From assembly GCA_963678485.1 (NCBI GenBank), contig OY782882.1:4066339-4130338 (forward strand): a DNA stretch of 64,000 bases. Reading direction: 5' to 3'. The notes beneath the pieces were generated by a model, which saw nothing but the letters and a program-made list of their open reading frames with translations, was not told the origin of the DNA and ran no database searches. The first letter of the stretch is position 1. The number at the start of each line of letters is the position of its first letter. This document shows positions 7,212-15,849 of the stretch, one piece after another. Origin of the DNA: Bacteroidales bacterium (GTDB lineage Bacteria; Bacteroidota; Bacteroidia; Bacteroidales; CAIWKO01). The translations under genes and the position numbers were made by a program.

Positions 7212-7303
7212 GGAGAGGTGGGTGAGCGGCTGAAACCAACAGTTTGCTAAACTGTCATACTGGGTAACTGGTATCGGGGGTTCGAATCCCCCCCTCTCCG
7301 CCA
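7212..7303 (+). tRNA. tRNA-Ser (anticodon GCT) with a long variable arm and encoded CCA
   Basis: Acceptor stem GGAGAGG pairs with CCTCTCC. The anticodon loop is TTGCTAA. A long extra arm precedes the T-arm GGGGGTTCGAATCCCCC, and the gene ends GCCA. Confidence 0.85.
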
Positions 7304-8060
7304 ATCAATCAAAAGTCCCGCAACAGCGGGATTTTTTTTTACCCCCGAACGCGCAAACAACGTTTGCAAGCGTCCGGGGGTAAAAAAAAATCGCGAGTGC
7401 GCAGCACACGGGACTTTTGATTGATTGAAGCCCCCACGCCGGGATCACGGAGCAGCGTTCGGGGCGAATTATCACGAACACTGCTCCGTAATCCCCACTC
7501 AATATTGTTTTTTCAACAGACGCGCAAACAACGTTTGCAAGCGTCCGGGGGTAAAAAAAATTGATCAAGCCGGATTGTTGAGGAAAGGTTTGAAGGTAAT
7601 ATTTGCAGGACTTCTTATTGTTTATCTCTCTGATTTCGCATTTCGTTTCTCGGATCTCTGATCTGTTTTTCTCTTTTCACCCTTTTCTCTTACTTCTTTC
7701 AGGCGCACCTACCCGACTGCGTCATTCGGGCGGGCCTGCCCGAATGACATCGGTCAGGCGGGGATTTCCGATTTACGAATGACGCAATTAACGAACATTC
7801 TATAATCGAGATATGTGGAATCCATGATTTTGCTTCAGTATTTTGAAATCAGAGATCCGAGAAACGAAATTAGAAGTACGAGATAAACCAAAGGAAAAGC
7901 CCGTGCTCACCAACTTTTCGTCTTGATCCAAAAAAAATCGCGAGTGCGCAGCACACGGAACTTTTGATAGATTCTATGATGCATGTTTTGCTTTTCTTAT
8001 AAACTCACTCAGGTGGTTGTTCCGATTTATCCAAAATGCTGTACCTTTGCATATCTAATA
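7304..8060. repeat. Complex intergenic region of nested inverted and direct repeats
   Basis: There is an outer inverted repeat at 7304-7320 and 7409-7427. A 42-bp element is present twice, at 7347-7389 and 7519-7560. The element AAAAATCGCGAGTGCGCAGCACACGGnACTTTTGAT is present twice, at 7385-7420 and 7931-7975. There is an 11-bp-stem hairpin at 7721-7748. One forward copy (about 7614-7680) and one inverted copy (about 7843-7890) of the 46-bp family arrayed at 54.3 kb are present. Confidence 0.6.
7317..7340 (+). terminator. Intrinsic terminator after tRNA-Ser
   Basis: The hairpin CCCGC-aaca-GCGGG is followed by a T9 run. Confidence 0.55.
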
Positions 8061-8073
8061 ACATATTGACATA

Positions 8074-9696
8074 GTGTATATTATTAAGTCATTCAAGGTA
8101 CTAATCCTGTTTGTGATTATCCTTGCCTCCAGCGCCGACGCTCAGCCATACGTGCAATTGCAGCCAACTGTGAACACTGATTTCGGTAAGGTCTATTATT
8201 TTTTGTGTCCAACAAAAGTGGGTACTAATCCACTTAATATTAAGCCATCGAGATTAATCCTCGATAGCAAGGGCGAGGTTATCTACTATAAAATTAATTA
8301 TGGCGGTCTGTATACCGGTGATTTTACCTTGCAACCCAATGGCATGATGTCATACAGTTTTAGGGGGAAATTTTTCCTCATGGATAGTACATTTACAATC
8401 CGTGATTCTGTAAAAACTATGAATGGTATCACGGCGGATTTACACGAATTACAAATTCTTCCTAATGGCCATTTTTTGCTGCTTGGTACTGAAGAGGTCA
8501 CAATGGACCTGAGCTCTTTTAATATGTTTAGCGGTAATGGCAGTCCTGGGAGCGATACAGCTATCGTAACAAGTGGCGTGATTCAAGAACTGGACGAAAA
8601 TAAAAACGTGATTTTTGAATGGCATGCATGGCAATATTACACATTTGATGATGTCGATGAAGCATTTTTGAATAATCCGATTACAGTGGATTGGACGCAT
8701 TTTAATTCACTCGAATTCGATAGTGATGGCAATCTGCTGGTTTCATCGAGGCATTTTAATGAAATCACTAAAATAGATCATACTACCGGCGACATAATTT
8801 GGAGGTTAGGTGGAAAACGTAATGAGTTTACATTTATCGGAGATAGCCAGCAATTCAAGGGGCAGCACGATATTCGGAGAATTGCCAACGGGAATATTAC
8901 ATTGTTCGACAATGGGAATGGAAATGCAAGTTCGGTCTTTCATCCCGCTTCGGCAAAGGAATATCATCTGGATGAAACAGTAAAAACGGCAGAATTGGTA
9001 TGGCAATTTGTAGATCAATCCGATGTTTACAGTACTGCATTGGGCAATGTTCAGCGTTTGCCGGATGGCCATACCTTAGTGAATTATGGTACTGAAGATA
9101 ACAATTCAGTAATCTTCAATGTTGTAGATACTGCGTGGAATAAGGTTTTCGAGATAAGCACCCCAAATGATCTCATCAGCTACAGAGCATTTTGTTATGA
9201 GAAACTTCCCTGGGAGTTGCCGCGTCCAATAATCAGTTGCACTGAATCGGGTGGGCAATTTTATCTTGATGCTGGTCCCGGTTATCCTGCCTATCGTTGG
9301 TCGGATGGAAGCACTACACAAAGTATTCAAGTTAATGGTGTGGACTCCTTTTATGTTTTTGTGCCTATTGGTCAGGGTGGTTTTATCAGATCGGAAAAGT
9401 TTGTTGTAATCAATCCGGAAAACCCTTGTGATATGGCCTCTGTATCAATGGTCACAGAGCCGGAATTGAAAATATTGCCCAATCCTGCCTCTGATGTTAT
9501 CAGGCTTATCGCGAAAACCGCAATAAAAAGTATAAATGTATATGATGCTAGAGGCATCCTTGTTAGTACTTGGCTGGGAAGTACTGATGAGATTGAGATT
9601 CCCTGTGCGTCCTTGTCGAATGGTGCATATTACATGCATATTCAAGATGTTGCCGGTAATATAATCATAAAAAGAATGATTGTTCTGCATCCATAG
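8074..9696 (+). CDS. Arylsulfotransferase (ASST/Arylsulfotran_2)-like beta-propeller protein with a type IX secretion C-terminal sorting domain
   Basis: There is a signal peptide. The ASST-like block is HFNSLEFDSDGNLLVSSRHFNEITKIDHTTGDIIWRLGG...GQHD...NGNITLFDNGNG. The C-terminal sorting domain is KILPNPASDVIRL. Confidence 0.5.
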   Translation: MYIIKSFKVLILFVIILASSADAQPYVQLQPTVNTDFGKVYYFLCPTKVGTNPLNIKPSRLILDSKGEVIYYKINYGGLYTGDFTLQPNGMMSYSFRGKFFLMDSTFTIRDSVKTMNGITADLHELQILPNGHFLLLGTEEVTMDLSSFNMFSGNGSPGSDTAIVTSGVIQELDENKNVIFEWHAWQYYTFDDVDEAFLNNPITVDWTHFNSLEFDSDGNLLVSSRHFNEITKIDHTTGDIIWRLGGKRNEFTFIGDSQQFKGQHDIRRIANGNITLFDNGNGNASSVFHPASAKEYHLDETVKTAELVWQFVDQSDVYSTALGNVQRLPDGHTLVNYGTEDNNSVIFNVVDTAWNKVFEISTPNDLISYRAFCYEKLPWELPRPIISCTESGGQFYLDAGPGYPAYRWSDGSTTQSIQVNGVDSFYVFVPIGQGGFIRSEKFVVINPENPCDMASVSMVTEPELKILPNPASDVIRLIAKTAIKSINVYDARGILVSTWLGSTDEIEIPCASLSNGAYYMHIQDVAGNIIIKRMIVLHP

Positions 9697-9764
9697 ACTC
9701 ATTGCGTTTTGCTATTTTTCCAGGAGGAGTCGATTACATCAAATTAATTTTGTAATTTTGACCT

Positions 9765-10076
9765 ATGAAGGCGTGGTCTCTCATTATGTGTCTGTATGTT
9801 TGTTCACTGTTGTGCTTCCCTTGTCAGGATAATGGAGTACACTCAGGAGTAGCCGGACATATGGCAAGCGATGCAACCCACCATGATAAGGATGATGGTG
9901 AATGTCATCATTGTTCCCCCTTCTGTACCTGCAATTGCTGTCATGTTACTGCAATAACGAGTCTTCATATATTTGCAGGTGTCTCCAGTGATGTTATTAT
10001 TCCTACGATTCCTTCAACAGTAGGTAATATTTCAGAGGGCGTGCGTTTCTCTATCTGGCAGCCTCCCAAAGCTTAA
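9765..10076 (+). CDS. Small Cys/His-rich hypothetical protein (candidate metal-binding) immediately upstream of the efflux pump
   Basis: The ORF is 103 aa with a hydrophobic N-terminus followed by HHDKDDGECHHCSPFCTCNCCH. It is co-directional with the pump gene and 100 bp upstream of it. Confidence 0.35.
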   Translation: MKAWSLIMCLYVCSLLCFPCQDNGVHSGVAGHMASDATHHDKDDGECHHCSPFCTCNCCHVTAITSLHIFAGVSSDVIIPTIPSTVGNISEGVRFSIWQPPKA

Positions 10077-10176
10077 CAAACATTTCTTGTTTGGTTAATG
10101 TCCGGAATGTTCATTCCGGCGGCAGCATACATATATTCTGCTGTGTTCATATTTTTTACGATTAAATATATTTATT

Positions 10177-13100
10177 ATGATTGACAGGATCATTCGTTTT
10201 TCCCTGAACAATAAGTTGATCATTGGACTCATGATTTTTGGGTTGATAGGGTGGGGTATATATTCGCTTACAGAGTTACCGGTTGATGCAGTGCCTGATA
10301 TCACAAACAATCAGGTTCAGGTGATTTCTATAGCACCTACGCTGGCTGCCAATGAAGTTGAGCAGTTTATTACAGCACCCATCGAAGTTTCGGTGGTAAA
10401 TATTCCTGATATAGTTGAATTGCGTTCTATCTCTCGTCTTGGGCTATCGGTGGTAACCATAGTTTTTGAGGATCATGTGGATATTTACAAAGCCCGGCAA
10501 CAGATAAGTGAACGCCTTAAAGATGCCGAGGGTCAGATTCCAGAGGGGTTGGCTAGTATTGATATGGCGCCGGTCAGTACGGGTTTGAGCGAGATTTATC
10601 AATATACACTCAAGGTTGAACCTGGCTACGAATCAAAATATACCCCGCTCGAACTACGTACGATTCAGGATTGGATTGTACGTCGCGAAATGCTTGGTAC
10701 GCCGGGTGTTGCTGATGTAAACAGCTATGGAGGATATGTCAGCCAATATGAAGTGGCCGTGGATCCAGTGCGTTTAAAAAGTATGGGTATCACACTCAAT
10801 GAGGTGTTTGATGCACTGGAAGCGAATAATCAAAATACAGGAAGTGCCTATATTGAGAAAAGCCGCAATTCCTACTTCATTCGTGGAATTGGTCTCGTGA
10901 ACACGCTCGACGACATTGGAAAGATTGTCGTGAAAAACCGCGAAGATGGGGGACCCATATTAATCAGGGATGTTGCTACACCACAAATCGGAAGTGCTCC
11001 ACGATATGGAGCCTTGGTGATGGATACCACCGGTGAAGCGGTTGGTGGCGTAGTTATGATGCTCAAGGGCTCCAACGCCTCTCAGGTGATTGAAGTGGTG
11101 AAAGAACGCATGGAGACGATCAAAAAATCGCTGCCAAAAGGAGTGGGTATTGAAGCCTATCTAGATCGTACCGATCTTGTAGATCGCGCAATTAACACGG
11201 TTTCTCGAAACCTGCTTGAAGGAGGACTCATCGTAATTTTTGTACTTGTGTTAATGCTTGGGAATCTTCGTGCCGGGTTTGTTGTTGCGTCTGTGATCCC
11301 ACTTTCCATGCTATTTGCGGTTTCTATGATGAATGTCTTTGGTATTTCAGGAAACTTAATGAGTTTAGGTGCCATCGATTTCGGTTTAATTGTCGATGGT
11401 GCGGTAATCATTGTCGAAAGCGTGGTTCATCGCATAACAAAAAGCAAGACACACCATCAGGGTTTGCTAAAATTGAGCAGGCAACAAATGGATGAAGAAG
11501 TGTACGATTCATCACGTCGTATGATGAATTCGGCCACCTTTGGTCAGATGATTATTCTGATTGTTTATTTACCCATCCTTGCCTTGATTGGCATCGAAGG
11601 AAAAATGTTCCGGCCAATGGCACTCACGGTTGGTTTTGCAATCATTGGCGCTATTATATTGTCGCTAACCTATGTACCTGTCGCATCATCGCTCTTTATC
11701 AGCCGTAAGACAAAAAGCCGGCGAAATATTTCCGATGTTATCATGGATTTTTTACAGAAGATTTTTACTCCTGTGATTAATTTGGCATTGCGTGCAAAGA
11801 TTGCAGTTGTAGTGATTTCCCTGTTATTACTTATTTCGAGCCTTTTTGTCTATTCTCGTTTAGGGGGCGAATTTATTCCAAATCTGGAAGAAGGAGATCT
11901 TGCATCATCTGTAATTACGCTACAAGGCGGTTCATTGTCGAATACGATAGAAACGGTGAAAAAGGCCAACAAGATTTTGATGACCAAATTTCCTGAAGTA
12001 AAACATGCAGTCTGTAAAATTGGTTCTGCCGAAATTCCAACTGACCCAACGCCAATGGAGACGGGAGATTACATCATCGTTATGAAAGATAAAAGTGAAT
12101 GGACGAGTGCTTCCTCAAGAGAGGAGATGATGGATAAGATGCAGGAAGAATTGTCGGTCCTACCTGGAGTTGTCTTTGAATTACAGCAGCCCATACAGAT
12201 GCGGTTCAACGAATTAATGACTGGCTCAAAGCAGGATGTTGCCGTTAAAATTTTTGGAGATAATCTGGATCTCCTTGCGGAAAAGGGCCGGCAGACTGAA
12301 AAGCTGATTCGTGATATTCCCGGAGTGGTAGATATTAATGTAGAAAAGGTAACGGGATCAGGACAGATTCAAGTCATTTACAATCGTGATAAAATTGCAT
12401 TTTATGGACTGAATATCGCCGACATCAACCGTATGTTGAAGACGGCATTTGCCGGAAGCAGTGCAGGTGTGGTGTACAATGAGGAAAAACGGTTTGATTT
12501 GGTTGTCAGGTTTGATAAGCAGTTCAGGCAGGATATTGATTATGTTCGAAATCTCTATATTCCTCTTGCCTCAGGAAAGCAGGTTCCTCTCTATGAGGTA
12601 GCCGATGTAAGCTATCGTACAGGTGTGGCGCAGGTTTCGCGCGAAGACACCAAGCGAAGGATTACAGTTGGTTTCAATGTAAGAAATCGTGATGTTGCTT
12701 CAGTAGTTGATGAGGTGCGAACAAAACTCGATGCGAAGCTGAATCTTCCTGCAGGTTATTATACCACATATGGCGGACAATTCGAAAACCTTATTGCAGC
12801 AAGAGAGCGTCTGATGGTGGCTGTTCCTGTGGCATTGCTACTGATTTTTGTGCTATTGTTTATCACATTTAAATCGGTGAAGCAAGCATTGCTAATTTAT
12901 ACGGCAGTTCCCTTTTCCGCTATTGGCGGGATATTCGCCTTATATTTCCGTGGATTGCCTTTCAGTATTTCAGCTGGTGTAGGCTTCATTGCATTGTTTG
13001 GTGTGGCTGTGCTAAATGGCATAGTGCTGATTGCTGAATTCAATCGTCTGGAAAAAGAAGAAGGAATTGAAGATATATATGAGCGCGTACGCAGAGGTAT

Positions 13101-14541
13101 TAAAATCCGCTTGCGTCCTGTGTTTATTACTGCTCTAGTGGCTTCGTTGGGATTTCTTCCGATGGCTCTATCAATATCAGCAGGAGCTGAAGTTCAGCGT
13201 CCATTGGCCACCGTAGTAATTGGAGGATTGATTTCTTCAACGTTTTTAACATTGATTGTACTTCCAGTGCTGTACATTTTATTTTCGCGCAAGCGTAAGA
13301 AAGGTGCAGTTGCGGGAACTATTCCGGCGGCCGTGATTCTAATGCTTGTATTGTTCTTTGCACTAAGCATTCCTTCTCAGGCGCAACAACAACTTCCAGC
13401 GAAATATACCATGGAGCAGGCAGTAAGCAAAGCCCTGGAAAGCAATGGCGGACTGCAATCTTCTGTCTTAAAAACAAGGCAAATGAAAGCCTTGCAGGGT
13501 GCAGCATGGGACATTGGAAAAACCAATGTTGATCTTACGTATGGACAAAGTAATTCTTTTGAGCGTGATAATAATTATAGTGTGACTCAGGAAATCGAAT
13601 TTCCTGCAGTGTATGCTAGTCAGCATCGTTTAGCAAAAGCGGAGACGCGTAGTGCAGAAATGGAATTAGCTGTTGCTCGCGGCGAGCTTATTCGAGATGT
13701 GAAAATTGCCTGGTGTGAGATAGTCTTTCTTCACGCACAAAGCGCGTTACTCGACTTTCAGGATAGTATCTATTCGTGGTTTTTGCAGGCGGCTGAATTA
13801 AAGGCTGCATCGGGCGAAAGCCCTCCACTGGAAAAGACCGTTGCTGAAACTCGTTTGATGAAAACCAGGACAGCGAAAGTGCAGGCTGCGGTTGAATTAC
13901 AAAATGCGCAACGTAATCTGGCTTATCTGCTTAACGAACCCCTTGCTGTTGATGCTACAGATTCAATACTTAGTGCGCTGGTACTGCCTGCAATTGCTGA
14001 TACCTCATCTAAAGATAGTCCGTTGCTCAACTATGCGCAACAACAGTTAATGATACGTCAGGCAGAGCGCGGTTTGGAGCGATCCAAACTTTGTCCTGGA
14101 ATATCTGCGGGTTATTTTAATATGAGCAATAAAGATCTTGATGCCAATGGGCGTTTTACGGGATTTCAGGTAGGACTTAGCATTCCCGTATTTTTTGGAG
14201 CTCAGGCCACTCGCATCAAAGCAGCAGGATTGGGGATAGCGGTTGAAAGGGCGCAGTACGATTACTATTCGCAGCGGGTACAGACAGAGGTTTCCATACA
14301 GCGAAACGAATGTTTGAATTACCGGTCCACACTGGATTACTATGAAAGCTATGCGTTGAAACAGGCGTCGCTTCTCTTGGAACAGGCATCGACTAGTTTT
14401 AGCAGTGGCGATATTAGTTACTCAGACTACCTGCGTAATGCCAGTGACGCACTCGATATACAGGCTGCCTATCTGGAAATGCTTAATGCATATAATGCAG
14501 CAGTAATAAAGTATCAATTTCTCACAGGTATTGAAAAATAA
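10177..14541 (+). CDS. czcA: CusA/CzcA-family heavy-metal efflux RND pump fused in frame to a TolC/CzcC-like outer-membrane factor
   Basis: The first ~1040 aa have a typical CzcA N-terminus and a 12-TM RND body. There is then no stop codon. A signal-peptide-like segment (AAVILMLVLFFALSIPSQAQ) follows. After it come about 400 aa of outer-membrane-factor-type sequence. Confidence 0.7.
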   Translation: MIDRIIRFSLNNKLIIGLMIFGLIGWGIYSLTELPVDAVPDITNNQVQVISIAPTLAANEVEQFITAPIEVSVVNIPDIVELRSISRLGLSVVTIVFEDHVDIYKARQQISERLKDAEGQIPEGLASIDMAPVSTGLSEIYQYTLKVEPGYESKYTPLELRTIQDWIVRREMLGTPGVADVNSYGGYVSQYEVAVDPVRLKSMGITLNEVFDALEANNQNTGSAYIEKSRNSYFIRGIGLVNTLDDIGKIVVKNREDGGPILIRDVATPQIGSAPRYGALVMDTTGEAVGGVVMMLKGSNASQVIEVVKERMETIKKSLPKGVGIEAYLDRTDLVDRAINTVSRNLLEGGLIVIFVLVLMLGNLRAGFVVASVIPLSMLFAVSMMNVFGISGNLMSLGAIDFGLIVDGAVIIVESVVHRITKSKTHHQGLLKLSRQQMDEEVYDSSRRMMNSATFGQMIILIVYLPILALIGIEGKMFRPMALTVGFAIIGAIILSLTYVPVASSLFISRKTKSRRNISDVIMDFLQKIFTPVINLALRAKIAVVVISLLLLISSLFVYSRLGGEFIPNLEEGDLASSVITLQGGSLSNTIETVKKANKILMTKFPEVKHAVCKIGSAEIPTDPTPMETGDYIIVMKDKSEWTSASSREEMMDKMQEELSVLPGVVFELQQPIQMRFNELMTGSKQDVAVKIFGDNLDLLAEKGRQTEKLIRDIPGVVDINVEKVTGSGQIQVIYNRDKIAFYGLNIADINRMLKTAFAGSSAGVVYNEEKRFDLVVRFDKQFRQDIDYVRNLYIPLASGKQVPLYEVADVSYRTGVAQVSREDTKRRITVGFNVRNRDVASVVDEVRTKLDAKLNLPAGYYTTYGGQFENLIAARERLMVAVPVALLLIFVLLFITFKSVKQALLIYTAVPFSAIGGIFALYFRGLPFSISAGVGFIALFGVAVLNGIVLIAEFNRLEKEEGIEDIYERVRRGIKIRLRPVFITALVASLGFLPMALSISAGAEVQRPLATVVIGGLISSTFLTLIVLPVLYILFSRKRKKGAVAGTIPAAVILMLVLFFALSIPSQAQQQLPAKYTMEQAVSKALESNGGLQSSVLKTRQMKALQGAAWDIGKTNVDLTYGQSNSFERDNNYSVTQEIEFPAVYASQHRLAKAETRSAEMELAVARGELIRDVKIAWCEIVFLHAQSALLDFQDSIYSWFLQAAELKAASGESPPLEKTVAETRLMKTRTAKVQAAVELQNAQRNLAYLLNEPLAVDATDSILSALVLPAIADTSSKDSPLLNYAQQQLMIRQAERGLERSKLCPGISAGYFNMSNKDLDANGRFTGFQVGLSIPVFFGAQATRIKAAGLGIAVERAQYDYYSQRVQTEVSIQRNECLNYRSTLDYYESYALKQASLLLEQASTSFSSGDISYSDYLRNASDALDIQAAYLEMLNAYNAAVIKYQFLTGIEK

Positions 14542-14547
14542 GCAAAA

Positions 14548-15849
14548 ATGAAAGATCTTAATAAAATGAATAATTTTAATATTTCTGTTATGAAACATTC
14601 AGAAAATGCCAGTATTATCGGGACAGCCAGAGTATATCATCGGAGCAGCTTTTTAGGTCGGTCAGGAATTACTTTCAGATCGTTGATGTTAGCTCTTGCA
14701 ATTTCGATGGTCGTTTTTCTAGGTAGTTGCGGACAAGCGGTGGTTGAAGAGGAAGAATCGGCGCACGAAGTACTTCCTGAAAACATTGTAGAGATGACCA
14801 GCGACCAGTATAAGGTTGCAGGCATCGAGCTGGGGAAAGTGGAAGAAAAAGCCATGAGTAAGCTGATTAAAGCAGCGGGAACCATTACTGTACCGCCGCA
14901 AAATCTTGCAACCGTATGTGCCAGCTACGGCGGCTACATTAAGAGCACCTCACTGATGCAGGGTAGTCCGATTAAAAAAGGACAGGTGTTGGCAATCATT
15001 GAGAACCCCGAATTTATTACGATACAGCAGGATTATCTAGAAAGTAAAAGTCAGTTGCAATTTTTGCAACAGGAGATCGATCGTCAGGAGTCGCTGTATA
15101 AAGGGAATGTAAGTTCTGCAAAGACCTATCAGCAGGCACTGGCTGATTACAAAACGATGAAGAGCAGGGTCAGTGCGTTAGAGCAAAAGCTGTTGCTTAT
15201 TGGTTTAGATGCATCCAAATTAAAGGAGGATAATATTCGTGCTGCATTGCCAGTATTATCGCCCATATCAGGCTTTGTAAAATCGGTGAATGTCAATATC
15301 GGGAAATATGTAGCGCCAACGGATGTGCTCTTCGAAATCGTTAATAATGCTGGTTTGACCTTAGAGATAGAAGTATTTGAAAAGGATGCAGGACGCATTA
15401 TAAACGGTCAGGCAATTCGCTTTTCGGTCTTGAGTTTTCCAGATAAAGAGTTAACAGCTACTGTCTATCAATCGGGCAAAGCATTGGACCAGGATCAGGC
15501 AGTACGCGTATACGCAAGAATTGATAAGGGAGATGTTACGCTGATGCCAGGTATGGCAGTAAATGCTTTTATACAAACTGATGAAGCTACCACCACCGCT
15601 ATTCCGTCTGATGCAGTGGTTTCTTTTGATGACAAATATTTCATCTTTGTGTTTAAAGGAGAAAGGGTCGAAGGGGAGAAAAAAGTGAACGACTTTGAAG
15701 TGGTTGAGGTTCGCAAGGGTATCAGTGAAAACGGATACACTGAAATTATGCTACCTGCTAGTTTTGATATTAAGAAAGCACAGGTAGTTATAAAAGGTGC
15801 GTTTGAAGTACTTTCTAAAATGAAGAATGCGGGAGAAATGGCATGCTAG
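14548..15849 (+). CDS. Efflux RND periplasmic adaptor subunit (CzcB/HlyD-type membrane fusion protein)
   Basis: It has biotinyl-lipoyl-like and beta-barrel segments (GQVLAIIENPEF, coiled-coil LQQEIDRQESLYK). The likely true start is the internal Met before the lipobox FLGSC, at about 14686. Confidence 0.7.
   Translation: MKDLNKMNNFNISVMKHSENASIIGTARVYHRSSFLGRSGITFRSLMLALAISMVVFLGSCGQAVVEEEESAHEVLPENIVEMTSDQYKVAGIELGKVEEKAMSKLIKAAGTITVPPQNLATVCASYGGYIKSTSLMQGSPIKKGQVLAIIENPEFITIQQDYLESKSQLQFLQQEIDRQESLYKGNVSSAKTYQQALADYKTMKSRVSALEQKLLLIGLDASKLKEDNIRAALPVLSPISGFVKSVNVNIGKYVAPTDVLFEIVNNAGLTLEIEVFEKDAGRIINGQAIRFSVLSFPDKELTATVYQSGKALDQDQAVRVYARIDKGDVTLMPGMAVNAFIQTDEATTTAIPSDAVVSFDDKYFIFVFKGERVEGEKKVNDFEVVEVRKGISENGYTEIMLPASFDIKKAQVVIKGAFEVLSKMKNAGEMAC

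Follow-up and report, generated by a model that had tools for sequence, protein, structure and literature searches.

What does a small, cysteine-rich open reading frame (ORF) do at the head of a heavy-metal efflux operon? The question is raised by a window of 64,000 nucleotides (nt) from a Bacteroidales bacterium (GenBank assembly GCA_963678485.1, contig OY782882.1, positions 4,066,339 to 4,130,338 of the forward strand), in which an ORF of 103 amino acids (aa) lies directly before the gene for a CzcA-type pump of the resistance-nodulation-division (RND) family; the window means this whole stretch, and positions are counted from its first letter. The original prediction, made from the letters of the sequence, had proposed a periplasmic metal-binding chaperone, a sensor or a metallothionein-like buffer. 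We report that the ORF is a genuine, conserved small gene of the family DUF6660 (Pfam PF20365), and that its architecture resembles that of the proteobacterial CutF/CruR/CzcI class, of which it would be the Bacteroidota counterpart, more closely than that of a free metal chaperone. The proposal drawn from this analogy is that the gene serves as a translated, cis-acting metal-sensing leader (upstream ORF, or uORF) controlling the czcA(-czcC)-czcB operon, and we consider the case for it evenly poised. The czc operons considered here have no neighbouring sensor kinase or metalloregulator.

A conserved small gene of the DUF6660 family

The ORF occupies positions 9765–10076 of the + strand, with an ATG at 9765 and a TAA at 10074–10076 read directly from the sequence, and its full translation is MKAWSLIMCLYVCSLLCFPCQDNGVHSGVAGHMASDATHHDKDDGECHHCSPFCTCNCCHVTAITSLHIFAGVSSDVIIPTIPSTVGNISEGVRFSIWQPPKA. 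A hydrophobic segment, KAWSLIMCLYVCSLLCF (residues 2–18), sits after M-K at the N-terminus, while residues 39–60, HHDKDDGECHHCSPFCTCNCCH, hold six Cys and five His within 22 residues. The original prediction was exact in the coordinates and length of the ORF, and its descriptions of the hydrophobic N-terminus, of the Cys and His count and of a co-directional pump gene 100 nt downstream were all confirmed. Over its whole length the ORF aligns to PF20365 (E = 1.8e-10; 41.6 bits, where the gathering cut-off is 27), its residues 1–103 covering positions 1–102 of the 102 in the model and carrying the family signature (P19-C20-Q-D22, C50-S-P-F-C-T-C-N-C-C59 and W98-Q-P-P101). The same model was hit by all 100 relatives that we aligned (hmmscan), and no NCBIfam model matched the window ORF. 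Within this family, which Pfam catalogues but which is uncharacterised, the window ORF is an ordinary member. The expectation that annotations would miss the gene or label it hypothetical held in its second half, relatives being called ‘hypothetical protein’ wherever sources name them, but failed in its first, since Pfam already covers the family.

The relatives are numerous. A word-indexed protein search yielded three only, and an exhaustive profile search (1.84 billion representatives, threshold E <= 1e-3) was needed to recover 2,379 representatives at 50% identity. A scan of one genome per species located 296 loci encoding relatives, of which 80 were fetched and underlie the locus counts given below. 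All 80 come from Bacteroidota, including the Chitinophagaceae, Flavobacterium, Dyadobacter, Pedobacter, Prolixibacteraceae, Bacteroidales and Saprospiraceae, among others. Against its closest relative (locus L083, 69% aa identity), the window ORF shows saturated synonymous sites (proportion of synonymous differences, pS, 0.85) and few non-synonymous differences (pN 0.18), and the 14-codon Cys core has six synonymous and no non-synonymous changes (pN 0.00). Because pS is saturated while pN is low and the Cys core is free of non-synonymous change, the encoded peptide is under purifying selection.

Three conserved islands at a fixed spacing

Conservation across the family is confined to a few short blocks, which are placed in the window as follows.

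9765–10076, + strand: DUF6660 ORF, 103 aa plus stop codon; candidate translated metal-sensing leader of the czc operon
9768–9830, + strand: N-terminal hydrophobic helix (predicted by AlphaFold2) and P19-C20-x-D22, with P19, C20 and D22 at least 90% conserved
9903–9944, + strand: Cys cluster C47-H-H-C50-S-P-F-C54-T-C56-N-C58-C59-H60; presumed metal-binding site
9945–10046, + strand: spacer, residues 61–94, variable in sequence and fixed in length; information content near zero, pN 0.36
10047–10073, + strand: C-terminal motif F-S-I-W-Q-P-P-K-A; candidate ribosome-pausing or arrest motif, with the stop two residues past the proline pair (PP)

In an alignment of 100 diverse members (mean identity about 30%), C20, C50, P52, C56, C59 and P101 were invariant and M1, L15, P19, D22, C54, C58, W98, Q99 and P100 were conserved in at least 90%. 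The information profile contains three islands only, namely the N-terminal helix with PCxD, the Cys cluster (consensus C-[ST]-P-F-C-x-C-x-C-C) and the C-terminal motif (consensus [FY]-[SA]-I-W-Q-P-P-[KQR]), separated by two stretches in which sequence conservation is almost nil. Helix residues I7, Y11 and L15 are likewise kept family-wide. Of the Cys/His cluster that was originally singled out, the Cys core is conserved, but the His residues and Cys47 of the window ORF are not. The spacer between the Cys cluster and the C-terminal motif has the highest pN of any segment of the ORF relative to the closest relative (0.36), while the distance that it spans is held nearly constant: among the 215 sequences carrying both a Cys core and a PP motif, the last core Cys precedes the first Pro of the pair by 39–44 residues in 215/215 and by 40–41 in 75%. 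The pair itself is placed 2–4 residues before the stop in 208 of the 215 (97%), predominantly within IWQPP[KQR]. All four Pro codons are used at both PP positions, indicating that conservation concerns the peptide rather than the RNA.

AlphaFold2, run on the 100-sequence alignment, predicted a helix at residues 2–17 (predicted local distance difference test, pLDDT, 80–93) and no globular domain (mean pLDDT 68; predicted template modelling score, pTM, 0.31), with a further region of pLDDT 81–85 at residues 71–90 that lacks secondary structure. A search of PDB sequences with the family profile returned no related solved structure. By its sequence, the N-terminal segment looks like a signal anchor or a signal, and may be an uncleaved signal anchor; inspection revealed no lipobox and no AxA-type cleavage site. 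A lipoprotein reading of C20 was rejected, as the invariant Pro directly before it (position -1) disfavours a lipobox.

First gene of the pump operon

The operon downstream of the ORF consists of two genes.

10177–14541, + strand: CzcA-type heavy-metal RND permease with a CzcC/OEP domain, 1454 aa; proposed regulated gene
14548–15849, + strand: CzcB-type periplasmic adaptor, last gene of the operon; HlyD_D23, TIGR01730 and TIGR00999 matches

The pump gene starts 100 nt past the DUF6660 stop, on the same strand, and encodes ACR_tran (residues 5–1036) and OEP (1279–1451) domains according to Pfam. It scores 1150 bits against TIGR00914 (CusA/CzcA), and its closest solved structure is the zinc exporter ZneA (664 bits versus 621 for CusA). 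The motif in the fourth transmembrane helix, read from the translation, is DFGLIVDGAVIIVES, close to the DFG-DGA-VEN signature of divalent-cation heavy-metal efflux (HME) pumps. No regulator gene adjoins the operon in the window.

This arrangement is widely shared. [quoted passage not shown] The conservation check that accompanied the original prediction was therefore passed, and its view that the ORF heads a metal-efflux operon is upheld. The six exceptions comprise one locus in which the contig ends (L078), four in which a TonB-dependent receptor gene is found downstream (L015, L039, L043 and L046) and one with a gene for a PAP2 protein (L041). In all the loci examined the DUF6660 gene takes the leading position, and in no case does it lie within or behind the operon.

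Several further features were seen at these loci. The fusion of permease and outer-membrane factor recurs in relatives (1458 aa in L086 and 1470 aa in L087), and adjacent permease and OEP hits in the same frame occur in several further genome loci; the joining of an inner-membrane pump to an outer-membrane factor is topologically odd. Gaps of 224–297 nt between DUF6660 and czcA hold another conserved ORF, about 48 aa long, with a Lys-rich N-terminus, one transmembrane helix and a His-containing tail (for example, MAKGKKSKKANHPLAIRVIKFIVIALCCVILLAAIAERIVHYYRYITK). This ORF was found in the Chitinophagaceae and relatives (L012, L020, L023, L032, L049, L058, L074 and L075) and in the Bacteroidales (L036, L061 and L072), a 36-aa gene is called at its position in L087, and the window lacks it. 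Locus L061 also has a second, divergent DUF6660 copy (positions 1158–1469, - strand; CSPFCTCNNCH ... IFWHPPHLS), which heads a gene for a 240-aa His/Met/Asn/Gly-rich, lipoprotein-like product without a Pfam match and is flanked by a TonB-dependent receptor and a multicopper oxidase tagged for type IX secretion, a neighbourhood that looks like a copper island.

Putative promoter and intergenic RNA

The DNA on either side of the ORF carries the following predicted elements.

9745–9752 and 9753–9760, + strand: pair of putative -7 promoter boxes of the Bacteroidota type (TAATTTTG), lying 20 and 12 nt upstream of the ATG
10077–10143, + strand: three consecutive hairpins predicted by folding, A (10077–10093), B (10102–10119) and C (10120–10143)
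10144–10176, + strand: unstructured, A/U-rich 33 nt leading up to the czcA start codon; no pairing in the centroid structure

Of 67 related loci, 54 have the promoter motif TAnnTTTG in the 120 nt that precede the DUF6660 ATG, most often at -12 to -26; the 62 DUF6660–czcA intergenic regions contain none (0/62). Such a placement fits one promoter for the whole operon, as far as promoters can be judged from sequence. A scan around the ORF for classical terminators and sigma-70 promoters gave nothing above shuffled sequence. The position of the boxes would imply a very short or absent 5′ leader, and hence a leaderless or near-leaderless mRNA. The Bacteroidota do not rely on Shine-Dalgarno-based initiation, and a leaderless DUF6660 mRNA would be unusual and possibly relevant to how the ORF is translated in such a phylum.

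The RNA between the ORF and czcA folds better than expected: its minimum free energy is -21.6 kcal/mol (z = -2.57), a stability matched by 2 of 200 shuffles. The arms of hairpin B are CCGGAAUG...CAUUCCGG. The intergenic region of the closest relative has the same three-hairpin layout (z = -3.11) with different sequences in A and C. Across 63 loci, the 90 nt after the DUF6660 stop have a mean z of -2.04 under dinucleotide shuffling, compared with control values of -0.20 in coding segments of czcA and -0.46 in DNA from upstream (Mann-Whitney p ~1e-12 and ~5e-10, respectively, values that overstate independence because the loci are mutually related). A strong hairpin is present in 55 of the 63, beginning a median of 20 nt past the stop and ending a median of 37 nt before the downstream ATG. 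Support for the hairpins consists entirely of per-sequence folding statistics. Rfam returned no match at the locus at E values up to 1, the tRNAs being the sole matches in the whole window, which excludes a known riboswitch or leader. Reading the hairpins as intrinsic terminators was also rejected, T-rich tails following a minority only.

A proposed co-translational metal sensor

Taken together, the fixed distance between the Cys core and the proline pair, the IWQPPK motif near the stop, the structured intergenic RNA and the occurrence before TonB-dependent receptors are hallmarks of a CutF/CruR-type translated leader (PMC9973294, PMC9426467). The position as first gene is essentially invariant and extends to TonB receptor genes and to the lipoprotein-like gene of L061, neighbour classes that have also been reported for CutF-like proteins (PMC9973294), which further supports this reading. 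Also in its favour are the confinement of conservation to three islands, the varied Pro codons, the lack of a predicted fold, the placement of the promoter box, the absence of an adjacent regulator gene and the matching order of elements in CzcI. Under the proposed mechanism, the operon would be transcribed from the promoter immediately upstream of the ORF, and the hydrophobic N-terminus would bring the translating ribosome to the membrane. Peptide-bond formation or termination would be slow at I-W-Q-P-P-K, at the end of the ORF, and at that pause the Cys cluster, about 40 residues back, would just have emerged from the exit tunnel. Binding of a thiophilic divalent metal by CxPFCxCxCC and C20 could then alter the dwell time of the ribosome at the ORF end, which would affect how the neighbouring hairpins fold or how accessible they are, and thereby alter read-through into czcA or its translation. 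Zn, Cd or Co is the likely metal, because the pump is ZneA/CzcA-like. Since the hairpins leave the start codon uncovered and the Bacteroidota lack Shine-Dalgarno-based initiation, the coupling of dwell time to czcA could involve transcription attenuation, RNA processing or stability, or re-initiation. In addition, because DUF6660 precedes an exporter as well as importers, the sign of the response would be set by the intergenic RNA and not by the peptide, as for CutF versus CruR.

In a more specific version, to which we give tentative credence, somewhat short of an even chance, DUF6660 would be an independently evolved metal-sensing arrest peptide, non-homologous to DUF2946, and the main switch of HME-RND pumps in the Bacteroidota. 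A metal-thiolate site formed by the six Cys of the nascent chain, about 40 residues from the peptidyl-transferase centre, would act on a ribosome held by W-Q-P-P-[K/Q/R], and some TonB-dependent metal receptors would be tuned in the same way. Such control would involve neither Shine-Dalgarno sequences nor neighbouring two-component or MerR/ArsR regulators, and would probably act on a leaderless or near-leaderless mRNA.

Of the three roles originally suggested, a sensor comes closest to the cis-acting leader proposed here, whereas chaperone and buffer lack specific support. The original prediction had also set its small protein apart from a regulatory leader that might contain the ORF; the evidence points instead to the ORF being that leader.

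Parallels in described systems

The best-studied analogue is CutF of Rhodobacter capsulatus, a small exported protein of the cutFOG operon whose motifs are CxxxC and a Pro-rich, stalling-like one at the C-terminus (PMC9973294). Cu bound to the nascent exported chain delays its completion, upon which a stem-loop masking the cutO ribosome-binding site unfolds; CutF acts in cis only, when translated, and is degraded after export (PMC9973294). Using iterative jackhmmer searches, Ozturk et al. 2023 gathered 5,334 CutF-like proteins, 19% of them from Bacteroidota, defined by a length of <150 aa, a PP among the 15 residues at the C-terminus, a signal peptide and a co-directional neighbour, the commonest neighbours being OEP, ACR_tran, HlyD and TonB-type proteins, with CzcI, SilD and CusD included (PMC9973294). 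The window ORF has 103 aa with P100-P101 two residues from the C-terminus, a CzcA-type pump gene 100 nt downstream (as in 74/80 relatives) and, as a signal inferred from sequence, the hydrophobic helix 2–17 after M-K, with no AxA site visible. DUF6660 may already be among the CutF-like proteins counted for the Bacteroidota.

Like CutF, DUF6660 is the small first gene of a metal-homeostasis operon and combines a hydrophobic N-terminus, a Cys motif, a near-C-terminal PP and an intergenic stem-loop. The two nevertheless share no detectable sequence similarity. In place of CxxxC, DUF6660 has CxPFCxCxCC and a distal PCxD, and its C-terminal IWQPP[KQR] is unlike the motif of CutF. The downstream gene encodes an RND pump rather than a Tat-exported multicopper oxidase, and the metal is likely divalent Zn, Cd or Co rather than Cu. 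Moreover, the CutF stem-loop masks the ribosome-binding site of the next gene, whereas those after DUF6660 leave the czcA start region uncovered. The unmasking step cannot equal that of CutF, because the hairpins miss the start region and the Bacteroidota use no Shine-Dalgarno sequence.

CruR of Bordetella pertussis (DUF2946, PF11162) is a uORF in which Cu relieves translational arrest, leading to Rho-dependent termination before a TonB-dependent transporter gene (Roy et al. 2022; PMC9426467); the arrest has been demonstrated in vitro (PMC12992588). The two families share a conserved Cys motif, an xxPP about three residues from the C-terminal end, a largely unstructured AlphaFold model and a constant spacing from Cys to PP (45 +/- 1-2 residues in CruR, PMC9426467; 39–44 in DUF6660, in 215/215), and CruR heads a TonB-dependent transporter operon, as DUF6660 does in four loci. 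They differ in the C-terminal motif (RAPP versus WQPPK) and in the Cys motif, which is CXXC in CruR and a six-Cys cluster in DUF6660; the window ORF does have C47-H-H-C50, though C47 is not a conserved position of DUF6660. CruR represses an importer, whereas the usual target of DUF6660 is an exporter that is expected to be induced. None of 100 DUF6660 members matched PF11162 (hmmscan, E up to 10), and Cu-related uORFs of the RAPP/RGPP type are reported to be absent from the Bacteroidota (PMC12992588). DUF6660 would accordingly work in the manner of CutF and CruR, yet it is not assigned to DUF2946.

A similar order of elements is found in CzcI from plasmid pMOL30 of Cupriavidus metallidurans, encoded by a small gene directly before the Czc-type RND operon czcCBA. 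CzcI (family PF28244, weakly DUF2946) consists of a signal, YCxHE, a linker rich in His, DCGxCH, a stretch of about 40 variable residues and PPDRPQW, and these elements correspond in order to those of DUF6660: YCxHE to PCxD, D-C-G-x-C-H to D-x-C-S-P-F-C, and PPDRPQW to IWQPPK. PPDRPQW is present in most members of the CzcI family, though CzcI of strain CH34 itself has APDRP and not PP. The CH34 czc operon has the CzcRS two-component system, whereas the window locus has no adjacent regulator. On pMOL30, RefSeq gives czcI (L085:25176-25523) the label ‘CDF family cobalt-zinc-cadmium transporter CzcI’, a wrong name for what is a CutF-like protein of 115 aa, and silD (L088:20023-20418) encodes a 131-aa protein with LCQAHCH ... 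PRPPPRP and no Pfam match. As SilD lacks a Pfam match and DUF6660 gave negative results for homology to DUF2946 and CzcI, ‘CutF-like’ denotes an architectural class and not a family captured by a single HMM.

Arrest peptides that sense translocation provide a further comparison. SecM, VemP and MifM and the NSP-stop and NAP-stop uORFs of Bacteroidota (PMC10987492) also combine an N-terminal export or insertion signal with a C-terminal arrest motif and are encoded by small ORFs directly upstream of a membrane-machinery gene. In contrast to the role proposed for DUF6660, they sense translocation activity and not metal and have no Cys cluster, and WQPP is not among the motifs described for them (PMC10987492).

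Weighing the alternatives

A number of observations weigh against a cis-acting metal sensor. The family has no published experiments, a literature search for DUF6660/PF20365 or any of its members having found nothing, and we know of no work that establishes WQPPK as an arrest motif; ordinary PP pauses are normally resolved by EF-P. The predicted hairpins end 33 nt before the czcA AUG, leaving the start region unpaired, and as the Bacteroidota lack Shine-Dalgarno-based initiation, the step by which CutF exposes such a sequence is not directly transferable. No consensus RNA structure could be derived with MAFFT/RNAalifold from the six closest loci, whose intergenic regions are too diverged to align. 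A TAnnTTTG match inside the window ORF, at 9968, could act here as an independent promoter for czcA; this internal promoter was rejected, since matches inside the ORF (at 9795 and 9968) are at chance level and those inside the ORFs of relatives are not enriched (5 of 67, versus about 9 expected). Use of the same family before an exporter and before importers would need opposite regulatory logic. The parallel to CzcI and DUF2946 may be superficial given the lack of homology: hhalign gave probabilities of 16% against CzcI and 10.6% against the CzcI family, with the hydrophobic N-terminus alone aligning, in a test that covered these two and not CutF, CruR or CopL. Homology to DUF2946/CzcI was rejected on the combined negative results of hmmscan and hhalign.

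Six Cys, the SPF motif and the helix residues exceed what a minimal sensor would need and also fit a stable protein. In the principal alternative, which is in essence the idea of the original prediction and which we regard as possible though on the unlikely side, DUF6660 would be a membrane-anchored small metal-binding protein (N-terminus in, C-terminus out) acting in trans with the pump, either as a chaperone or metal funnel on the periplasmic face, like CusF, or as a small accessory subunit, like AcrZ. Its Cys cluster would hold Zn, Cd or Co and IWQPPK would dock on CzcA or CzcB. Such a partner would account for the family-wide retention of the helix (I7, Y11, L15), PCxD and six Cys, for strong purifying selection and for tight linkage to CzcA and CzcB; the confident region at residues 71–90 (pLDDT 81–85) might be a conformation adopted with a partner, the only effect of the hairpins behind the gene might be a high ratio of small protein to pump, and the second small membrane ORF before czcA in some loci would make small membrane proteins a recurring theme of these operons. 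However, no globular fold is predicted (pTM 0.31), the 34-residue spacer varies in sequence and not in length, the PP is fixed at 2–4 residues before the stop, and docking on a pump makes no sense before TonB receptors or an unrelated lipoprotein gene. A periplasmic cluster of six Cys would also tend to oxidise. DUF6660 resembles CusF/SilF as a small protein in a heavy-metal RND operon that is thought to handle metal in the periplasm. CusF, however, is a folded OB-type beta-barrel that is encoded mid-operon and binds through Met, His and Trp, whereas the ligands of DUF6660 would be Cys, it has no predicted fold and its gene is never elsewhere in the operon. Sequence searches link it neither to CusF or metallothionein nor to any solved structure, with no Pfam match to CusF (PF11604) or metallothionein for the window ORF or the 100 aligned members. 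The soluble periplasmic chaperone and the metallothionein-like buffer of the original prediction are thus not borne out.

Both functions could reside in one gene, with the nascent chain regulating czcA in cis and the released, anchored product binding metal or the pump. This would reconcile an arrest-like C-terminus and fixed spacing with a rich, invariant Cys cluster and helix, but it is less parsimonious, the evidence does not separate it from the single-function models and CutF is degraded after export (PMC9973294); we consider it improbable. By far the least probable reading is that no functional pump-related protein is made, the ORF being either a chance occurrence in a non-coding leader or riboswitch or the precursor of a secreted Cys-rich peptide (a bacteriocin, or a ribosomally synthesised and post-translationally modified peptide). 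Three of 100 members have weak Pfam hits to a putative bacteriocin family (E ~0.009) and the surrounding RNA is structured. Yet pN/pS is 0.18/0.85 with no non-synonymous change in the Cys core, the Pro codons vary freely, 2,379 relatives exist at the protein level, Rfam has no match, and the neighbours are metal transporters, with no modification or export genes nearby. The codon-level evidence already effectively refutes this reading. Overall, the observation from which the original prediction started is confirmed and its interpretation is partly supported.

Implications of a possible translated metal sensor

The concept of metal sensing by uORFs has been published and CutF-like proteins of the Bacteroidota have been counted; what is new here is a different arrest-like motif, a different metal site, the lack of detectable homology and a phylum that initiates without Shine-Dalgarno sequences. 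Should DUF6660 prove to be a co-translational metal sensor, thousands of ‘hypothetical’ genes would gain a function, and the principle of CutF and CruR would reach a second major phylum with another arrest motif and metal site. The family would then be a natural case of metal-dependent folding of a nascent chain controlling the ribosome, and would show such control in bacteria that initiate without Shine-Dalgarno pairing. The system is compact, comprising a promoter, a 103-codon ORF and a 100-nt spacer, and might serve as a metal-responsive switch for the Bacteroidota. If DUF6660 is instead a stable partner of the pump, it would represent a new, Cys-based accessory subunit of HME-RND pumps.

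Other features upstream of the operon

The gene upstream of the operon (8074–9696) encodes an ASST-like (arylsulfotransferase) beta-propeller with a type IX secretion C-terminal sorting domain and is unrelated to the present finding, a different neighbour occupying this position in the closest relative. Further upstream, a tRNA-Ser(GCT) is located at 7212–7303. The roughly 500 nt past it (7300–7800) contain no long ORF, and their short ORFs on the minus strand look repetitive, with FFYPRTLANVVCA strings, so this stretch may be a repeat or an integration scar beside the tRNA.

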